From NCBI RefSeq assembly GCF_041886205.1, contig NZ_CP169029.1: DNA of 64,000 nt; one strand, 5' to 3'. The position numbers were made by a program, and so were the translations under genes. Source of the stretch: Escherichia coli. Its GTDB lineage: Bacteria; Pseudomonadota; Gammaproteobacteria; Enterobacterales; Enterobacteriaceae. Of the stretch, positions 36,667 through 59,917 are shown one piece after another. The notes beneath the pieces were generated by a model. That model searched no databases and was not told the origin of the DNA. It was given only the letters and a program-made list of their open reading frames with translations. Every line of letters begins with the position of its first letter. The first letter of the stretch is position 1.

Positions 36667-37122
36667 TTAGTACTGATGAGCGGTCGCGTTGTTACCAAAG
36701 CCAACCTGAGTCACGTTGACGGAGGAGTTAGATGCAGTCTGGTCAACTGCAGCACCGTTGCCACCACCGAACTGTTTAACAGTCATTTCAGAATTTTTGC
36801 CGTTCCACTGATCAAGAGTAGCGCTGTTACCGAAGCCACGTTGGGTCAGATCGATTGAGCTGTCATCCGAGCCCTGACCAACATCTGCACCATTACCGCC
36901 GCCATGCTGGGTAATAGTCAAGTCAGAGTTACGGGCATCAGTTTGCAGAGCAAGTGCAGAGTTACCGCCACCGTACTGGTAAATGTTCAGCTCTGAATTT
37001 GGGCCGCTATTATTACCGCCACCACCGTGGTTACCGCCGCCGCCGTACTGAGGAACAACACCTGCCAGAGCGCTACCGGAGAATACGATTGCTGCAATTG
37101 CTGCTACTTTTAAAAGTTTCAT
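36667..37122 (-). CDS. csgA: Major curlin subunit
   Basis: 151-aa ORF with signal peptide and repeated S-x5-Q-x-G-x-G-N-x-A units. Confidence 0.95.
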   Translation of the reverse strand: MKLLKVAAIAAIVFSGSALAGVVPQYGGGGNHGGGGNNSGPNSELNIYQYGGGNSALALQTDARNSDLTITQHGGGNGADVGQGSDDSSIDLTQRGFGNSATLDQWNGKNSEMTVKQFGGGNGAAVDQTASNSSVNVTQVGFGNNATAHQY

Positions 37123-37162
37123 GTAAAACCCCCATCGGATTGATTTAAAAGTCGAATGGAAA

Positions 37163-37618
37163 TTAACGTTGTGTCACGCGAATAGCCATTTGCGACTGTC
37201 TCTGCACTACAATTGCCGTTTTTTGAGTACCATACTGTGTAATATTTGCTTTATTACCAGAACCTTTCTGGATAATCATCGCAGTATTACCATAAGCACC
37301 TTGCGAAATACTGGCATCGTTTGCACTGCCCGCCTGATCAATATATGCAAGGTTATAATCTCCTGTCTGGTCAATCTTTGCCCGATTGCTACTACCTTCT
37401 TGCGCAACAACCGCCAAAAGTTTTGAGCCTCCCTGCCGTAACTGAGCACTATTATTCGTCCCAGCTTGACCAATTATGGCTGCCTGATTAAATGAAGACT
37501 TACTCAATTCATTTACCGCGAAGTTATATTCTGAATTAGCTAAATCATAACCTGCTGCGGCTGCAATCCCAGGCGCACCCAGTATTGTTAACATCATAAA
37601 TAACAATTTGTTTTTCAT
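37163..37618 (-). CDS. csgB: Minor curlin nucleator subunit
   Basis: Track ORF trimmed to MKNKLLFMMLTILG (151 aa); start codon checked. Confidence 0.9.
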   Translation of the reverse strand: MKNKLLFMMLTILGAPGIAAAAGYDLANSEYNFAVNELSKSSFNQAAIIGQAGTNNSAQLRQGGSKLLAVVAQEGSSNRAKIDQTGDYNLAYIDQAGSANDASISQGAYGNTAMIIQKGSGNKANITQYGTQKTAIVVQRQSQMAIRVTQR

Positions 37619-38371
37619 GTTGTCACCCTGGACCTGGTCGTACATTTAAGAAATTAAATCATTTCAACTTGGTTGTTAACGCAACCTGTATTTTGTTAAC
37701 GCTGCGTTACGATGGAAAGTATGTCTGCGGAAATATTTTTAATAACTCACCCGCGCGTTGTATTTTTCTTTTTTTGTTCATACCAAAGTATTAAAACCCA
37801 CGTAAATACGCTGTTATCTACGCAAAAAATATTTTGTTTTCTTTTAAATCTCCGTTTTCCGCTATCAAAAATCACCAGACAGTCATTTTTCTTGCCCGTC
37901 GCTGATTGCTGCGATATGTCTTGCGCACAAGCCGTGACAAACCTCGTCTTTTTGCAGTAAAAAATTGTCCACGGAGGTGCGGAGAAAAAACAAGAACGTT
38001 TTACGTGACGAAAGGACTACACCGAAATATTTTTTATATGTATTATTAGTAAGTTATCACCATTTGTATGATTTTTTAAAATTGTGCAATAAAAACCAAA
38101 TGTACAACTTTTCTATCATTTCTAAACTTAATAAAACCTTAAGATTAACATTTTAATATAACGAGTTACATTTAGTTACATGTTTAACACTTGATTTAAG
38201 ATTTGTAATGGCTAGATTGAAATCAGATGTAATCCATTAGTTTTATATTTTACCCATTTAGGGCTGATTTATTACTACACACAGCAGTGCAACATCTGTC
38301 AGTACTTCTGGTGCTTCTATTTTAGAGGCAGCTGTCAGGTGTGCGATCAATAAAAAAAGCGGGGTTTCATC
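37619..38371. promoter_or_regulatory. csgBAC / csgDEFG divergent intergenic regulatory region incl. csgD 5' UTR
   Basis: ~750-bp visibly AT-rich intergenic between divergent csgB and csgD; individual sites not resolved. Confidence 0.7.
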
Positions 38372-39022
<651 letters not shown>

Positions 39023-39026
39023 AGCC

Positions 39027-39416
39027 ATGAAACGTTATTTACGCTGGATTGTGGCGGCAGAATTTCTGTTCGCCGCAGGGAATCTTCACGCCGTTGAGGT
39101 AGAAGTCCCGGGATTGTTAACTGACCATACTGTTTCATCTATTGGCCATGATTTTTACCGAGCCTTTAGTGATAAATGGGAAAGTGACTATACGGGTAAC
39201 TTAACGATTAATGAAAGGCCCAGTGCACGATGGGGAAGCTGGATCACTATAACGGTCAATCAGGACGTTATTTTCCAGACTTTTTTATTTCCGTTGAAAA
39301 GAGACTTCGAGAAAACTGTCGTCTTTGCACTGATTCAAACTGAAGAAGCACTAAATCGTCGCCAGATAAATCAGGCGTTATTAAGTACGGGCGATTTGGC
39401 GCATGATGAATTCTAA
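39027..39416 (+). CDS. csgE: Curli secretion specificity factor
   Basis: 129-aa ORF with signal peptide. Confidence 0.9.
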
Positions 39417-39440
39417 ATAAAAAATTGTTCGGAGGCTGCA

Positions 39441-39857
39441 ATGCGTGTCAAACATGCAGTAGTTCTACTCATGCTTATTTCGCCATTAAGTTGGGCTGGA
39501 ACCATGACTTTCCAGTTCCGTAATCCAAACTTTGGTGGTAACCCAAATAATGGCGCTTTTTTATTAAATAGCGCCCAGGCACAAAACTCGTATAAAGATC
39601 CGAGCTATAACGATGACTATGGTATTGAAACACCCTCAGCGTTAGATAACTTTACTCAGGCCATCCAGTCACAAATTTTAGGTGGGCTACTGTCGAATAT
39701 TAATACCGGTAAACCGGGCCGCATGGTAACCAACGATTATATTGTCGATATAGCCAACCGCGATGGTCAATTACAGTTGAACGTGACAGATCGTAAAACC
39801 GGACAAACTTCGACAATCGAAGTGTCGGGTTTACAAAATAACTCAACCGATTTTTAA
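39441..39857 (+). CDS. csgF: Curli assembly component
   Basis: 138-aa ORF with signal peptide. Confidence 0.9.
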
Positions 39858-39883
39858 GCCCCAGCTTCATAAGGAAAATAATC

Positions 39884-40717
39884 ATGCAGCGCTTATTTCT
39901 TTTGGTTGCCGTCATGTTACTGAGCGGATGCTTAACCGCCCCGCCTAAAGAAGCCGCCAGACCGACATTAATGCCTCGTGCTCAGAGCTACAAAGATTTG
40001 ACCCATCTGCCAGCGCCGACGGGTAAGATCTTTGTTTCGGTATACAACATTCAGGACGAAACCGGGCAATTTAAACCCTACCCGGCAAGTAACTTCTCCA
40101 CTGCTGTTCCGCAAAGCGCCACGGCAATGCTGGTCACGGCATTGAAAGATTCTCGCTGGTTTATACCGCTGGAGCGCCAGGGCTTACAAAACCTGCTTAA
40201 CGAGCGCAAGATTATTCGTGCGGCACAAGAAAACGGTACGGTTGCCATTAATAACCGAATCCCGCTGCAGTCTTTAACGGCGGCAAATATCATGGTCGAA
40301 GGTTCAATTATCGGTTATGAAAGCAACGTCAAATCGGGCGGGGTTGGGGCAAGATATTTTGGGATCGGTGCCGACACGCAATACCAGCTCGATCAGATTG
40401 CCGTGAACCTGCGCGTCGTCAATGTGAGTACCGGTGAGATCCTCTCCTCGGTGAACACCAGTAAGACGATACTTTCCTATGAAGTTCAGGCCGGGGTTTT
40501 CCGCTTTATTGACTACCAGCGCTTGCTGGAAGGGGAAGTGGGTTACACCTCGAACGAACCCGTTATGCTGTGCCTGATGTCGGCTATCGAAACAGGGGTC
40601 ATTTTCCTGATTAATGATGGTATTGACCGTGGTCTGTGGGATTTGCAGAACAAAGCAGAACGGCAGAACGACATTCTGGTGAAATACCGCCATATGTCGG
40701 TTCCACCAGAATCCTGA
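39884..40717 (+). CDS. csgG: Curli secretion channel lipoprotein
   Basis: 277-aa ORF with lipobox LLSGC. Confidence 0.92.
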   Translation: MQRLFLLVAVMLLSGCLTAPPKEAARPTLMPRAQSYKDLTHLPAPTGKIFVSVYNIQDETGQFKPYPASNFSTAVPQSATAMLVTALKDSRWFIPLERQGLQNLLNERKIIRAAQENGTVAINNRIPLQSLTAANIMVEGSIIGYESNVKSGGVGARYFGIGADTQYQLDQIAVNLRVVNVSTGEILSSVNTSKTILSYEVQAGVFRFIDYQRLLEGEVGYTSNEPVMLCLMSAIETGVIFLINDGIDRGLWDLQNKAERQNDILVKYRHMSVPPES

Positions 40718-43916: not shown

Positions 43917-44004
43917 GGTGAGGTGTCCGAGTGGCTGAAGGAGCACGCCTGGAAAGTGTGTATACGGCAACGTATCGGGGGTTCGAATCCCCCCCTCACC
44001 GCCA
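43917..44004 (+). tRNA. serX: tRNA-Ser (GGA anticodon)
   Basis: 88-nt GGTGAGGTGTCCGAGTGGCTGAAGG...GGTTCGAATCCCCCCCTCACCGCCA with class II long variable arm and T-loop GGTTCGAATCC. Confidence 0.95.
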
Positions 44005-52423: not shown

Positions 52424-55270
52424 TCAGAAGGTCACATTCAGTGTGGCCTGACCGTTATACCCTTCAGCGCTGCTGCCGCTGACGCTGTGGGCATAACCGG
52501 CCTGAACGCCCAGGGTGATATTTTCCCGGACACGGGCTTCCAGTCCGGCCTGCAGGTCCAGTGATGTGCCATTCTGTGAGGGAGAGAACGTCATCCCGCT
52601 GCCTGCAGTGGAAGTCCCCACACGCATATCTCCCCGGGAGCTGAAGGTGCGGATAACAGAAGGCTGTACCCACCAGTTCACCGGTAATTCACTCACACTG
52701 TGTTTTGCACTGTCACGCAGGGGGGCACGGGATGAGGTGCCTTCGCCAAAGGTCATATCGTTGTGGCTGCCCAGACGGAAACCGGCACGCACATGTTGTG
52801 CACTGCCATGCCCGAACTTCACATAACCGGCGTTGTCCTTACCGTCATCCAGGGAAAGTCCCTGCCAGGTATACTGTAGTTGTGGCTCCAGCATCAGGTT
52901 GTCAGTGATACTGAAGGGCAGACCGGTTTCCAGTGAACCCAGCCAGCCCCAACCCCGGGCGCGGAAGTCGTTATTGTCCGTTGACGCTTTCATGCTGTGG
53001 CGGGTTCCCAGGGCCACAATGTCAGCCCACAGTCCGGAGGCGTTGTGTATCAGATTCAGGTATCCGCCCAGGCTGCCGGCATCATCCCGGACCGTGCCGG
53101 CGCGGGAGCCGTCATCATCCTTAACATCAACGGAAGAATGGCCTGCAGCACCATACACCCCTGTCGTCAGAGACATACCGGCAACCTCTGTTCTGAGCAG
53201 GTCACCCTCCAGACGGACGAAGCCATAGCTGCCGCTGCTTTCCGGCGTGGCTCCACGGGCAATACCGCCGTTGTTATCGTGACCGAGATGACCGCCCTGA
53301 ATGCTGAGACGGACGCTGTTATTTTCACCGTTTACACCGGTCTGATGGCTGCGGGAGCCTGCCAGAATCCGGTCATAGTCCATTGCCTGTGTCAGCATGG
53401 ATGTATACAGGGGGACTTCAGCACGATAAGCATTTTCACTGCGCAGGTACCAGTCTTCATCGCTGTCACGGTTCAGGGTGTAGTTAAAGGCGCCGGCCTG
53501 AAGCGGGCGACTCAGGGCAAACGCACCTTCTTCTGTGGTGGCGCCATTCTGTGCATCCACAACCCGGATACCCTGTCCGGAGGTTGCCACCCCGAGGTTA
53601 CTGTTTCCGACATTTGTAAACGCAAGCCAGGTTTTGCCGGTTGCCTGACCACCATTAATCACCAGCTGGTCAGAGGTATTGCTGCCATCAAGGCGAACAC
53701 GCATATTGATGGTGCCACCCTGACCGGTGAGGTTACTGGTGGTCAGTTTATGGAACGTTACCGGGGAGTCGCCTTTTGCAACAGCACGGCTCAGCGCGGC
53801 ATCCGGTGTCGTCTGATTATCAAAGCGAATCTCCCCTGCGTTAACAATATCGCCGGTACTGACCACATCACCATTCAGTACCATGCTGGCACCTTTACTG
53901 AGCTGTGTTCTGCCACTCAGATTTCCCCCGGCAGCCAGCGTCAGTGTTCCACGATGTCCGACAGTGGTGTTGCCAGCCTGTCCTCCGGCATTAACCGTAA
54001 AGCTGCCGCCATTTTCCAGCAGCAGGCCGCTGGCCTGACCGGAGATACCATCAATACTGAACTTACCGCTGGCATTGGTCCCCTCAACAGTGGCACCACT
54101 GTCTGCTATCAGGGCACCACCGGATGTCATGGTGACATCTGTTGCCTTACCACCGGCAGACACTGCCAGGATACCGCCGTCATCCACCAGGGTATTCTGT
54201 GCTGAATGGCTCTCCAGTACATCCAGACGACCGCCGGATTCCAGAACAACACCGTCAGCCTTACCGTTTTCCACAGTGAAATTGCCCAGACGGTTGCTGC
54301 CGGTGACGGTTGCCGCCGTACTGGTGACCAGTGCGCCTCCCTGCTTCAGGGTGACATTCGTGGCTGTACCACCGGCGTTCACCTGCAGTTTGCCTTTCTG
54401 GTTAACGGTGGTGAAATCCGCCAGACCACCTTCCTTGACAATCTGCCAGCCGTCACTGTTTACAACCGTGTCAGAGGCTGTGCCTCCGTTGTGCACATAC
54501 TGGTAACCGCCATTCAGTGTGGTATCCAGCGCATGCCCGTGTACCGTCTGGTCGCCGCCGGCATAAACCACAGTGGTATTTGCTGTTCCTTCAACAGCCA
54601 CAATCTGACGACCATTTTTATTGATGGTGGTACGTACGGCATTTCCGCGAACAAACTGCCCGGTATCACCATTTTCTGCATCTGGTCCCCCTTCCGCGCC
54701 GGTATTCACAACCGTGTCGGTTGCCATTGCGCCGGATTTGACGGCCTGCCAGCCCTTCTCATTAATGACGGTACCCGTTGCAATCCCGCCTTCATGTACC
54801 CACTGCTCACCGCCGTTCAGAGTGGTATTCACTGCCTGCCCCTGAAGGCTCTGTCCGCCTCCGGCACTGATAACCGTGTCTGAAACGCTTCCTCCGGCAT
54901 TCACTCTCTGAAGACCACCACCGGTGACAGTAGTGTTGTTGGCGATACCGCCATTTTGTATCCATTGCCCGCCGGTATTGGCCTCGTTATCCGGCCCATA
55001 CTCCAGACCGGTACTGATGGTCATTCCGTTGGCCGTACCGAGAACAATCTGGTTGTCATGATTTGTCAGTGTTCCGCCGCTCACGGTTTCTCCCGCCTGT
55101 ACAACCGTGTCAGCAGCCAGTGCCGGGACTGATGTGACAGCAGCAAGAGACAGCGCAATCGCCACACCGGCGCGTTTTCCCCGTGAGCGGGCCAGTTCGG
55201 AGGCCACCACCAGGGTACCCGTAATGTGATTCCATACCAGCCTGTAGCTGGTGTTCAGATGTCGTTTCAT
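52424..55270 (-). CDS. flu: Antigen 43 self-associating autotransporter adhesin
   Basis: Track ORF trimmed to MKRHLNTSYRLVWNHITG (start codon checked); signal peptide, beta-helical passenger repeats, C-terminal beta-barrel ending GYNGQATLNVTF; ~948 aa, shorter than the 1039-aa K-12 form. Confidence 0.9.
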   Translation of the reverse strand: MKRHLNTSYRLVWNHITGTLVVASELARSRGKRAGVAIALSLAAVTSVPALAADTVVQAGETVSGGTLTNHDNQIVLGTANGMTISTGLEYGPDNEANTGGQWIQNGGIANNTTVTGGGLQRVNAGGSVSDTVISAGGGQSLQGQAVNTTLNGGEQWVHEGGIATGTVINEKGWQAVKSGAMATDTVVNTGAEGGPDAENGDTGQFVRGNAVRTTINKNGRQIVAVEGTANTTVVYAGGDQTVHGHALDTTLNGGYQYVHNGGTASDTVVNSDGWQIVKEGGLADFTTVNQKGKLQVNAGGTATNVTLKQGGALVTSTAATVTGSNRLGNFTVENGKADGVVLESGGRLDVLESHSAQNTLVDDGGILAVSAGGKATDVTMTSGGALIADSGATVEGTNASGKFSIDGISGQASGLLLENGGSFTVNAGGQAGNTTVGHRGTLTLAAGGNLSGRTQLSKGASMVLNGDVVSTGDIVNAGEIRFDNQTTPDAALSRAVAKGDSPVTFHKLTTSNLTGQGGTINMRVRLDGSNTSDQLVINGGQATGKTWLAFTNVGNSNLGVATSGQGIRVVDAQNGATTEEGAFALSRPLQAGAFNYTLNRDSDEDWYLRSENAYRAEVPLYTSMLTQAMDYDRILAGSRSHQTGVNGENNSVRLSIQGGHLGHDNNGGIARGATPESSGSYGFVRLEGDLLRTEVAGMSLTTGVYGAAGHSSVDVKDDDGSRAGTVRDDAGSLGGYLNLIHNASGLWADIVALGTRHSMKASTDNNDFRARGWGWLGSLETGLPFSITDNLMLEPQLQYTWQGLSLDDGKDNAGYVKFGHGSAQHVRAGFRLGSHNDMTFGEGTSSRAPLRDSAKHSVSELPVNWWVQPSVIRTFSSRGDMRVGTSTAGSGMTFSPSQNGTSLDLQAGLEARVRENITLGVQAGYAHSVSGSSAEGYNGQATLNVTF

Positions 55271-55487
55271 CAGCTTTTCCTTACAGAGGGTGAATAAAAA
55301 AGCCGGTACCCACAAATGTGGATACCGGCAGGTACAAAACAGCATGGTCAGATAAAGTGGTTTTTCCCGGGCATAAATGCTTCCCCTCTCTCATCCGCCA
55401 GAGAAGTATCAGTCCGTTGTGTGCAATTCCGTTCTGCATGATGAAGAGATTCAGCTGCCTTTTCGCAGACCATTAACCACTATAAAC

Positions 55488-55642: not shown

Positions 55643-56515
55643 TCAGAAGAAAATCCAGTTCCATACAGCGCGGGCAACAGAGACCACCGTGTCACGGACG
55701 GCACGCAGAACCGTACGGGCAACAGAGGCAACACAGACGCTCTCCGCCGTGTCAAATATCCGGTCCACCGCACCGGTAAACTGTTCACGGGCCTGAGCGC
55801 GGACAGATTCCGTGCGCAGCTCGTCCTGCAGGCGGGTCATCAGGGGACTGGCGGCATGGTCGGGAAGCGCTGTCATTAGCGCACTGACCAGCGTATCCAG
55901 CTCCCAGCCGGTGCGGGCCGATACGGCAACAACCGGATGTACGGGCCGGAACAGACGGAATACCGCATCTGTTTTTTCGCGAATGTTCTGTGCCTGTGCG
56001 GGAGAAGGCTGAATGCCGGCCATATCCCATTCATGGCAGGGCTCCGTTTTGTCGGCCTGCGTCACCACAAACAGCACCTGCTGATGTCCCCGGTGCAGGA
56101 TGTGTCGCCAGAAATACTCATCCACAGACAGGGCACGGTCATCGGCTTTAATCAGCCACAGTACCAGGTCAAGTTCAGGCAGAATGTCACGGTACAGGGC
56201 CTCATACTCTGCATCCCTGTCCCGGCTCTCGCCCACCCCGGGCAGGTCAGTGATAACCATGCTGTGACCGTGGCCACTCAGACGGAAGCGCCGTACTTCC
56301 CGGGTGCCGGCGTGAACATCACTGACCGGGGTGACCTCCCCCTGAAACAGTGCATTACAGAGTGAGGATTTACCGGCCCCGCTTTTACCCATAATGCCAA
56401 TCACGGGTTCGTGACGGGTGAGTTTGCGCAGATGTTCCAGGATGTGACGGGAAAGTGAGTAAGGCAGGGAGGAGAGCGGTTTTTCAATTGCCTCAATGGC
56501 ATCAGACGGATTCAT
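55643..56515 (-). CDS. yeeP: YeeP/YkfA/YfjP-family GTPase
   Basis: Walker A GKSGAGKSS and DLPG motif; trimmed to MNPSDAIEAIEKPL (start codon checked); upstream of Ag43 as in CP4-44. Confidence 0.8.
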   Translation of the reverse strand: MNPSDAIEAIEKPLSSLPYSLSRHILEHLRKLTRHEPVIGIMGKSGAGKSSLCNALFQGEVTPVSDVHAGTREVRRFRLSGHGHSMVITDLPGVGESRDRDAEYEALYRDILPELDLVLWLIKADDRALSVDEYFWRHILHRGHQQVLFVVTQADKTEPCHEWDMAGIQPSPAQAQNIREKTDAVFRLFRPVHPVVAVSARTGWELDTLVSALMTALPDHAASPLMTRLQDELRTESVRAQAREQFTGAVDRIFDTAESVCVASVARTVLRAVRDTVVSVARAVWNWIFF

Positions 56516-56870
56516 ACATGTATTCCCGGTGAAAAAAGACAAAACCCCGCGCACCGGAAAGGTGGCGGGGGATTCACAACGATAATATCTGTCTGAAATT
56601 ATTTGGAATGCAGGTATATGCAGCTAATTTGTATCGGCTCATTAGTACAGAACTAAACCTCATCTGACAGTCCGCTCTATGTCATAAGCGGTCCTTATAT
56701 ACACTAAGGTAGAATTGTCTTCTGGGGCGGGGTTGTCCAAATAAAATCCTAAAGTATCTAATTTATACGTAGTGATTCAGTATCATGTGCTACGTGTTGA
56801 ATTATAAATTTAGTTTAAATTGGTTGTTTAGATATCTGCATGATAACTATCAGACCATTGTGGAGTATTT

Positions 56871-57525: not shown

Positions 57526-58905
57526 TCAGTCATAAAATTTATTTTTGCCTTTTGACGTCATGAGAAGGAAATATGAAGGGTGACTCTTTATTTCTGAAGA
57601 GTGGCTTGTTATACTAAAAACCTCTTTTAGAATCGTAAAGGCTCCTGTAGCCAACGACACTGGATTTGGTGCCCCAATAAAACCTATCAATGATGGCGCA
57701 ATGTTAAGAAAAAGTTCTTTATTACTTTTCCGCTTATAGGTCTGTATTTTTTGCTCAATATCGGTCAATCCTTCATCCCATATGCGCTCGACAAAATGCT
57801 GATTTATCAGCTGCCTCTTATATGGGTCACTTTCTGCTTCTATGTCATACGCAGCTTCACGTAGCACAGAGCGGAAGGCATTAAAACTCGATTCGTAGTC
57901 AGTTCTAATTTTGTAGAGTTCACTTGGAGTAAGCCCCTCTAGAAATGGAACGTCAATAGAGAGTTTAACCCTCTGAACTTCATTCCTTTGATCCAGTTTA
58001 CGAAGAATTTCTCCATGAAATGGGCAATATGCGCCCAGGGACGCTCTGCATGAATGCGCTTGGTTAAGATCAGTAATAAGGTTTTTATAATGAAAGAGAA
58101 CTGTACGATTTTTTGCTCCCTGCACCCACCGTTCATAACTTTTTTTTCCGCTATGCTTTCCCATGACAATTTCCATAGACATGGTACCATCATCATTATC
58201 AATGGCATTATTTATATGTTGATACATATATCCATTTGTATACGAGCTTTCGCAGCCTTTAATTTTCAACATAATTTCATTCGTTAAAACATTTCTGTTT
58301 AACAACCGAATTTTATTTGTGTTGCCCAGACGTTCTATATTCTGTACGGATAGTCTACTTTCATACAGACGGGCAATATTAGGGGGGAGATATCGAAATA
58401 GGAAATTAGTATCAGAGTTATCTTCTAAAATTCCATTAGCTCTCTCCGAATCTTTAATAGAGGATTCTCTTCGTACAAAAACGATAAACTCTCCACGGAT
58501 AAGATCAAAGTTTTCTTTAGCAAACCTGATAAACCTAGCAATTTCCTTCCTGAGATGTTCAACCTTCTCTTTGCTATCGCTTTCAATAAATTTTTCAACT
58601 ACGTTTTCTGATAGATTTACCCTGTATCGTAGGCTCAATGAATATAGAACGTCATCAAGAATGACTCTGTCCATTGAAAACAAACCACTCTTATACCTTT
58701 CAATATTACGATTCCCCGCCATGTAAACATTCAGCCGGGACTCCTGTACAGAATTTGTTTGTTCGATAATGAATGAATCTATCCTTTTATTATATTCAGC
58801 TAATTCAACTAGCAATTCGTTCAATCCGATATTTTCATATTCCTGTTCTAAAAGTCGATCAACCCAAAAAAGGCTTTCTGTGAGCGCATAGAGGTTGTTG
58901 TACAT
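57526..58905 (-). CDS. Hypothetical protein, 459 aa, unknown function
   Basis: Long ORF in the most AT-rich stretch of the window; K/E/N/I-rich; no Walker A or nuclease motif recognised. Confidence 0.7.
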   Translation of the reverse strand: MYNNLYALTESLFWVDRLLEQEYENIGLNELLVELAEYNKRIDSFIIEQTNSVQESRLNVYMAGNRNIERYKSGLFSMDRVILDDVLYSLSLRYRVNLSENVVEKFIESDSKEKVEHLRKEIARFIRFAKENFDLIRGEFIVFVRRESSIKDSERANGILEDNSDTNFLFRYLPPNIARLYESRLSVQNIERLGNTNKIRLLNRNVLTNEIMLKIKGCESSYTNGYMYQHINNAIDNDDGTMSMEIVMGKHSGKKSYERWVQGAKNRTVLFHYKNLITDLNQAHSCRASLGAYCPFHGEILRKLDQRNEVQRVKLSIDVPFLEGLTPSELYKIRTDYESSFNAFRSVLREAAYDIEAESDPYKRQLINQHFVERIWDEGLTDIEQKIQTYKRKSNKELFLNIAPSLIGFIGAPNPVSLATGAFTILKEVFSITSHSSEIKSHPSYFLLMTSKGKNKFYD

Positions 58906-59917
58906 ACTAGCTCCTTTTTACCAAGCTTCAGTACTGTGTTCTCAAGATTACTCAGTGGTTTTCACACAGAGTGCACTCTCATTTTACATTTAAATGTACT
59001 TCCTAGCATCCTGCTGTTAGTGCCGGATTACAGCACTTATCAACTGTATATTTAGAAAACAAACTGCGCATAATCCTAGTGAGTTGTTATGTCCGCTCCT
59101 CGCTCAAAGCAGACCATTCGCTCAGTTAACGCATCAGTGTCGTGCTAAAAGTAGACGTGGTTAACAACAATGTGAGTTAATCAACGGAGAGCAGGTCAAC
59201 TCTAACCTGTATCAAAAAAACAAATGTGTCACAAAGATGCCGCATGCCTTAATTTGAGTATAATTGAGACGGAAGTAGACGGTTTATGGCTAAATATTGT
59301 TGATATATAGCTATTTGAAGAGTTGTAGCGCAAGTGTATAGCCCAAACTAATAACGCTACCCCTTACCTTTGACGCCTCTTATCAAAGAGCTGCGATGAT
59401 GCACAGCCCGCACGAGGCAATATTCGCACAAGAATCAGGTTCAGAAATAACCTGCTCTGGCATGGTGGGGAGAGTATCACTGATCAGGCTTTCGTTAAGA
59501 TGCGGCGGGATGAGGCCGTGTTGCGTGAGTTGCAGCAGTACAAGATCGCCCGCAGAGGGTAAGCTACAGCGCGAGATCCTAGGTTTCTATCAGGGATTCG
59601 GCAAAGCGGGCGCAGTTGTCGACCAAGGCGGTGAAATCTATAGTGGCATTATAAGGGAACGAACAATAGATCGAGTAAATCGCAGTCAGGGACAAGGATT
59701 GTAGTCTATAGAGAAGTCTCCTGTAACGGTTTTCAGGAGGCTAATTCCGACGCCTGATTTTGCAGGCGCGGAGGGAGAGGATACTGCGACCATTAATCCG
59801 CCACAAAGCATTTACGTGCATAAATCACGCAGTCAGATCCGACTCTCACTGTAGTTCTTGAACCTGATACCACATTTAGCTAATTTAGCTAACTTATCCA
59901 GTATACCAGTGGTTGCC

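Follow-up and report, generated by a model that had tools for sequence, protein, structure and literature searches.

An intact csgB-csgD intergenic regulatory region of Escherichia coli in a common allelic form

The DNA between csgB and csgD in this genome is almost certainly the ordinary, intact divergent promoter region of csgBAC and csgDEFG, carrying the intergenic allele commonly found in genomes of the phylogroup-B1 type. It is a textbook locus in a common allelic form, that is, already known biology and no discovery. Our analysis of the window, by which we mean the whole 64-kb stretch of DNA, confirms a complete, undisrupted curli locus in which the master-regulator promoter and the sRNA-targeted leader are unchanged, a result of little import beyond annotation. 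Because the locus is complete and its promoter and leader are unchanged, the strain should be able to form curli and biofilm under normal regulation.

The gap in this genome, in K-12 and across genera

By the ORF coordinates the csgB-csgD gap measures 753 bp and is flanked exactly by two start codons, in a position between the divergent csgBAC and csgDEFG operons that is supported by both the ORFs and annotated homologues (Table 1). Its GC content is 34.3% (65.7% AT) versus 50.3% for the entire window, with the lowest 200-bp GC (23%) found at 38000-38199. No stretch of this length in the 64 kb has a lower GC content; just 0.68% of the possible 753-bp segments are as AT-rich as the gap, and each of these overlaps it. 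In length and composition the region agrees with its published K-12 counterpart, which has 754 b and 65.5% AT and ranks fifth in size among the gaps between divergent operons of that strain (PMC5745457). All seven csg genes around the gap are full length. The start codon of csgB lies at 37618 on the minus strand, and its product (MKNKLLFMMLTILG..., beginning MKNKLLF..., 151 aa) is identical to K-12 CsgB. The csgD DNA equals that of strain E2865, whose RefSeq protein is WP_000481500.1, and the encoded CsgD differs from K-12 CsgD by S19P and S110A.

End-to-end alignment of the gap to MG1655 (NC_000913.3 1103197-1103950, 754 bp) returned 7 substitutions and a 1-bp indel (98.9% identity), and in this alignment no insertion sequence or rearrangement was found in the gap, so that the two sequences are collinear. 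The flanking genes and their orientation are the same in K-12 as here, whereas the K-12 region differs in its length (754 versus 753 bp), in the 7 substitutions and in having a perfect MqsA palindrome. Six of the eight differences fall within the centre of the gap, 37796-38059. On the csgB side, 37589-37774 is base-identical to K-12 and includes the csgB-proximal 156 bp of the gap; on the csgD side, 38145-38401 is base-identical and includes the OmpR site, the core promoter, the RcsB footprint and the entire leader. An earlier note on this DNA had described about 750 bp of AT-rich, non-coding sequence, intact between the divergent curli operons and flanked by csgB and csgD. The exact length, the composition, the collinearity with K-12 and the annotated homologues on either side bear this description out.

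Within E. coli the gap is widespread, being carried at 80% coverage or more by 5329 of 5426 complete genomes, and the closest alleles differ from the one studied here by 1 base. In B1-type strains such as E2865, O26 RM10386 and O111 RM9322 the intergenic allele is identical except at 38005 (G here, A there), and in E2865 the csgD and csgE coding DNA is identical as well.

For the comparison between genera, a degenerate pattern of the csgD N-terminus recovered 37 loci from one-genome-per-species contigs, 29 of them with enough upstream DNA. These come from eight genera (Escherichia, Salmonella, Citrobacter, Enterobacter, Trabulsiella, Leclercia, Lelliottia and a metagenome-assembled genome labelled Raoultella), and in these 29 other Enterobacteriaceae species the gap spans 733-770 bp with 33-39% GC. 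Conservation was scored as the share of sequences in the 30-member alignment, this one included, that have the base found here (Table 1). The leader and the promoter-proximal part on either side have been conserved and the centre has drifted, with only 8 invariant columns among its 264. That the gap length and two promoter-proximal blocks are kept across at least 8 genera, with the centre free to vary, is a minor by-product of this work. The Salmonella csgD (agfD)-csgB region illustrates the pattern: its architecture is alike, with 738-760 bp in the two subspecies sampled, and the -10 region, a D1-type OmpR site and blocks of the leader are conserved (PMC13304067), whereas overall identity is only about 58-61%, and neither the centre nor the MqsA-palindrome region aligns as conserved sequence.

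One small island stands out in the drifted centre, about 290 bp upstream of the csgD start (Table 1), and the G/C swap within it keeps a palindromic GTSAC core. Compared by eye with CRP, Cra, RcdA (TTGTnnACA) and CsgD boxes, the CGTSACA island fits none of them well. In a CRP SELEX paper, csgD is among the targets that were not recovered.

Table 1. Features in and around the csgB-csgD gap, by position in the window. Positions relative to the csgD start are counted from the P1 start at about 38224.
Feature	Position	Strand	Remarks
csgB, curli minor subunit, first gene of csgBAC	37163..37618	-	ORF
csgB-csgD intergenic regulatory region	37619..38371	.	98.9% identity to K-12 MG1655 1103197-1103950
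csgB-proximal block	37619-37795		mean conservation 0.77
CsgD-box-like sequence upstream of csgB	37743..37753	-	identical to K-12; mostly invariant between genera
Difference from K-12	37775		T here, A in K-12; -449
Centre, spacer	37796-38059		mean conservation 0.47
Difference from K-12	37824-37829		A6 here, A7 in K-12; about -400
Difference from K-12	37872		T here, G in K-12; -352
Difference from K-12	37888		T here, C in K-12; -336
Conserved island CGT(G/C)ACA, T-run 9 bp later	37933..37953	.	in nearly all 30 species; surrounding ~260 bp drifted
Difference from K-12	37980		C here, T in K-12; -244
Substitution A to G, difference from K-12	38005..38005	.	G here, A in K-12; -219; in no other complete genome reached
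H-NS footprint	38023..38251	.	-201 to +28; PMC12388358, PMC3535384
Difference from K-12	38041		T here, C in K-12; -183
csgD upstream block	38060-38223		-164 to -1; mean conservation 0.80
MlrA palindromic box	38078..38112	+	-146 to -112; identical to K-12
MqsA-type palindrome, variant	38135..38146	+	AACCTTAAGATT here, AACCTTAAGGTT in K-12; site defined in PMC4894380
Difference from K-12	38144		A here, G in K-12; -80
OmpR activating site	38165..38190	+	-59 to -34; identical to K-12; strongly conserved, 30 species
csgD P1 core promoter	38190..38218	+	-35-like CTTGATT 38190-38196, -10 TAGATT 38213-38218; identical to K-12
RcsB footprint	38193..38277	+	-31 to +54; mapped by K-12 homology (PMC12388358); sequence identical to K-12
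csgD 5' leader, 148 nt	38224..38371	+	mean conservation 0.81; length and sRNA targets from PMC4152358
Rfam RF02752 (ES056 sRNA), first 92 nt of csgD leader	38225..38316	+	Rfam scan
Leader stem-loop SL1	38288..38345	+	about -84 to -27 from AUG; minimum-free-energy fold reproduces hairpin of PMC4152358
Leader stem-loop SL2, enclosing Shine-Dalgarno and AUG	38362..38387	+	-10 to +16; fold matches coordinates of PMC4152358
csgD, biofilm master regulator, first gene of csgDEFG	38372..39022	+	ORF; ATG at 38372

Promoter, protein sites and leader of csgD

The hexamers of the csgD P1 core promoter were assigned from their position relative to the transcription start, and within this promoter CTAGATTGAAA is invariant across all 30 aligned species. 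A generic scan for sigma-70 consensus and terminators gave no more matches than in shuffled sequence and missed the known csgD promoter, and is thus uninformative here. Upstream of csgB, CGGGTGAGTTA is presumably CsgD-box-like, as judged against the consensus CGGGKGAKNKA from Salmonella work. Upstream of csgD, we take GTTACATTTAGTTACATGTTTAACAC to be the OmpR site and AAAATTGTGCA-N12-TGTACAACTTTT to be the MlrA box (Ogasawara 2010). The P1 core promoter, the OmpR site and the MlrA palindrome are base-identical to K-12 and conserved in the 30 species, with the TGTACAACTTTT arm of the MlrA box invariant across genera. In Salmonella, the OmpR D1 site lies at about -51 (PMC13304067).

The literature upholds the statement of the earlier note that this region is heavily regulated, several sRNAs included. 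In K-12, the gap is bound by no fewer than 12 proteins and 5 small RNAs (PMC5745457; also PMC12713406 and PMC4152358), and of 32 mapped protein sites, 26 are found no further than 200 bp from the csgD start (PMC5745457). The RcdA footprint (-192 to -20) is contained within that of H-NS (PMC12388358, PMC3535384), and two of the K-12 differences, 38041 and 38144, fall inside the H-NS footprint. Binding by OmpR, MlrA, IHF, H-NS, CpxR, RcsB and CsgD, together with RpoS-dependent transcription, would be expected here from identity with the footprinted K-12 DNA (PMC12388358, PMC3535384). Through this sequence identity we infer K-12-like function of the elements in the strain, with normal function assumed.

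The csgD leader is 100% identical to that of K-12, and leader variation is confined to 3 sites among 16 E. coli alleles. Since the leader is the K-12 leader, the pairing sites for OmrA/B, McaS, RprA, GcvB and RydC, the small RNAs that target it (PMC4152358), are preserved. Because the leader is 148 nt (PMC4152358), the transcription start is placed at 38224. The full 148-nt leader is present with SL1, SL2 and the small-RNA pairing sites.

Taken with published work (PMC5745457, PMC12713406, PMC12388358, PMC3535384, PMC4152358), these elements suggest how the region would operate. Transcription from csgD P1 is expected to depend on RpoS and would be activated by OmpR, MlrA and IHF and repressed by H-NS, CpxR, RcsB and others, through overlapping sites no more than about 200 bp from the start. 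The leader would fold into SL1 and SL2, and the Hfq-dependent OmrA/B, McaS, RprA, GcvB and RydC would pair with it, lowering CsgD synthesis. CsgD would then activate csgB from its promoter on the far side of the gap, and the AT-rich centre of about 260 bp may be chiefly a curved spacer to which nucleoid proteins bind.

Alternative readings and the substitutions at -80 and -219

Two features of the gap could be read as an independent gene concealed within it, coding in one case for a small RNA (ES056) and in the other for a small protein. The match to RF02752 is strong, at 119.7 bits versus a gathering score of 43 (E = 5e-23, model positions 1-92 of 92), and ES056 was the only family returned when 37000-39100 was scanned against Rfam with a permissive threshold. 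However, ES056 was defined from RNA-seq at the csgD start, as a 92-nt transcript within 1 nt of the mapped start, and it is conserved in Escherichia, Shigella and Citrobacter and comes without a predicted terminator (PMC4676190, Table 3). In the gap its match begins at 38225, in independent agreement to within 1 nt with the transcription start, and its 3′ end falls within SL1. The RF02752 "family" thus amounts to the 5′ part of the csgD mRNA leader, with no separate locus, and ES056 is probably a truncated, processed or premature-termination product of that leader and not a separate gene. The longest ORF inside the gap (37712-37960, 82 aa) is rejected as a protein gene, as its frame is not kept among E. 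coli alleles: the ORF is 44, 64, 82 or 112 aa long depending on the allele, because the variable A-run at 37824-37829 shifts the frame. It also lies mostly in the part that lacks conservation between genera. Among the matches listed, no RefSeq feature underlies the gap match, save where IS1 has inserted. The gap is non-coding, and the chance that it conceals a gene of either kind is very slight. A still more remote reading takes the AT-rich stretch as horizontally acquired DNA or the remnant of a mobile element, and not as an ancestral regulatory region. Its GC content is indeed very low for E. coli, and IS1 copies are inserted in the gap in some strains, but the gap occupies the same position in other genera, within the length and GC ranges given above and with alignable conserved blocks, and the copy studied here holds no insertion sequence or repeat. 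We give such an origin next to no credence and retain the reading of an ordinary divergent promoter region.

The check proposed in the earlier note, an alignment to K-12 in search of the known sites, finds the csgD core promoter, the OmpR and MlrA sites and the leader preserved, but not the MqsA palindrome. The G to A change at 38144 (-80) turns AACCT-TA-AGGTT of K-12 into AACCT-TA-AGATT here, and it is the sole K-12 difference inside the densely mapped zone. The palindrome spans -89 to -78, ending at -78, and -80 also lies within a CpxR box (-68 to -80) and an IHF footprint (-37 to -96) cited in the same work (PMC4894380). Among the 5426 complete genomes, the A allele is found in about 2534 and the G allele in about 2166, as counted with a 38-nt probe that seeds solely on the matching allele, and a third allele, T, exists among the sampled E. 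coli alleles. In the 30-species alignment the palindrome is not conserved outside Escherichia. A perfect MqsA palindrome is no defining feature of the region, as only about 2166 of 5426 genomes carry it, so that the K-12 "site" is a minority allele and its absence here is ordinary. This minority status of the K-12 "MqsA palindrome" in E. coli is a second minor by-product of the analysis.

The G at 38005 (-219) is of another kind. It is carried by 0 of the 4275 complete genomes matched with a 51-nt probe, none of which matched perfectly; the best matches among the 5426 complete genomes are 99.9% identical, with this base as the single mismatch; and all 15 other alleles, sampled down the entire identity range, carry A. 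The adjoining 38002 and 38003 vary among alleles, and between genera the DNA around 38005 is not alignable as conserved sequence. Since -219 belongs to a spacer that varies among E. coli strains and lacks conservation between genera, it is probably neutral, and since 37386-39574 (csgB, the gap, csgD and csgE) differs from E2865 by 38005 alone, it appears recent. A neutral mutation of recent origin is the likeliest explanation. In a motif search, 38005 adjoins a lone minus-strand GTAAA pentamer (a CpxR-like half-site) that has no second half-site at the right spacing, and it matches a CRP site poorly; no recognisable site is created or destroyed.

Either substitution might nevertheless alter the function of the allele and give a different curli output, -80 through loss of MqsA repression or changed CpxR or IHF binding, and -219 through a site made or lost. 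Mutating the palindrome arm that -80 breaks sharply cut MqsA binding in vitro (PMC4894380), single bases of the csgD promoter can alter the biofilm phenotype (PMC11278976, PMC13304067), and the base at -219 is found in no other genome reached. Against this, A is the commoner form at -80 and T occurs there too, the palindrome is absent outside Escherichia, and a recent survey found csgBA expression unchanged by deletion of mqsR or cpxR (PMC12713406). The base at -219, for its part, adjoins polymorphic positions, is unconserved between genera and falls beyond the 200 bp where most mapped sites (26 of 32) are found (PMC5745457). A functionally altered allele is therefore unlikely. It is very unlikely, taking the two together, that either the island at 37933-37953 is an unrecognised binding site common to both curli promoters or -219 tunes curli expression in this lineage. 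The remark of the earlier note that nothing here is unusual is thus essentially right, qualified by an MqsA palindrome changed at -80 in a common allele and by a base at -219 that is found in no other complete genome reached.

Variants of the locus and the rest of the window

Several observations concern the locus beyond its promoter region. The WP_000481500.1 allele of CsgD is named by RefSeq in 12 of the 15 other genomes with fetched annotation, and K-12 CsgD is the less common variant within that sample. The locus is mosaic, as seen over 39441-40717, where 14 of 417 bases in csgF (about 3%) and 13 of 834 in csgG (about 1.6%) differ from E2865; over 18 kb around the locus, the best complete genome is 99.1% identical. 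Disrupted copies occur elsewhere and not here, with IS1 inside the gap in RM10740 and E3, and one genome retains 8% of the gap in its match. In the urinary isolate 43905, a 10-bp deletion from -60 to -51 (equivalent to 38164-38173) lies inside the OmpR site, and curli loss would be expected.

Past ghrA, a tRNA-Ser(GGA) gene (43917-44004) is followed by a genomic island that continues to the end of the window (43917-64000). K-12 is not known to have an island at tRNA-Ser(GGA). By homology to strain C11, the island carries a DUF4942 gene, a CbtA/CbeA toxin-antitoxin pair and an antirestriction gene. Its ORFs include an Ag43/AIDA-type autotransporter (52424-55345, minus strand), a GTPase (55643-56554, minus strand) and the methylase (60134-62572) and specificity subunit (62566-63921) of a type I restriction-modification system. 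Between the GTPase and the restriction-modification genes, a 459-aa ORF without a Pfam match (57526-58905, minus strand) lies in the only other part of the window that is as AT-rich as the curli gap, with GC at or below 36% over 57943-59023.
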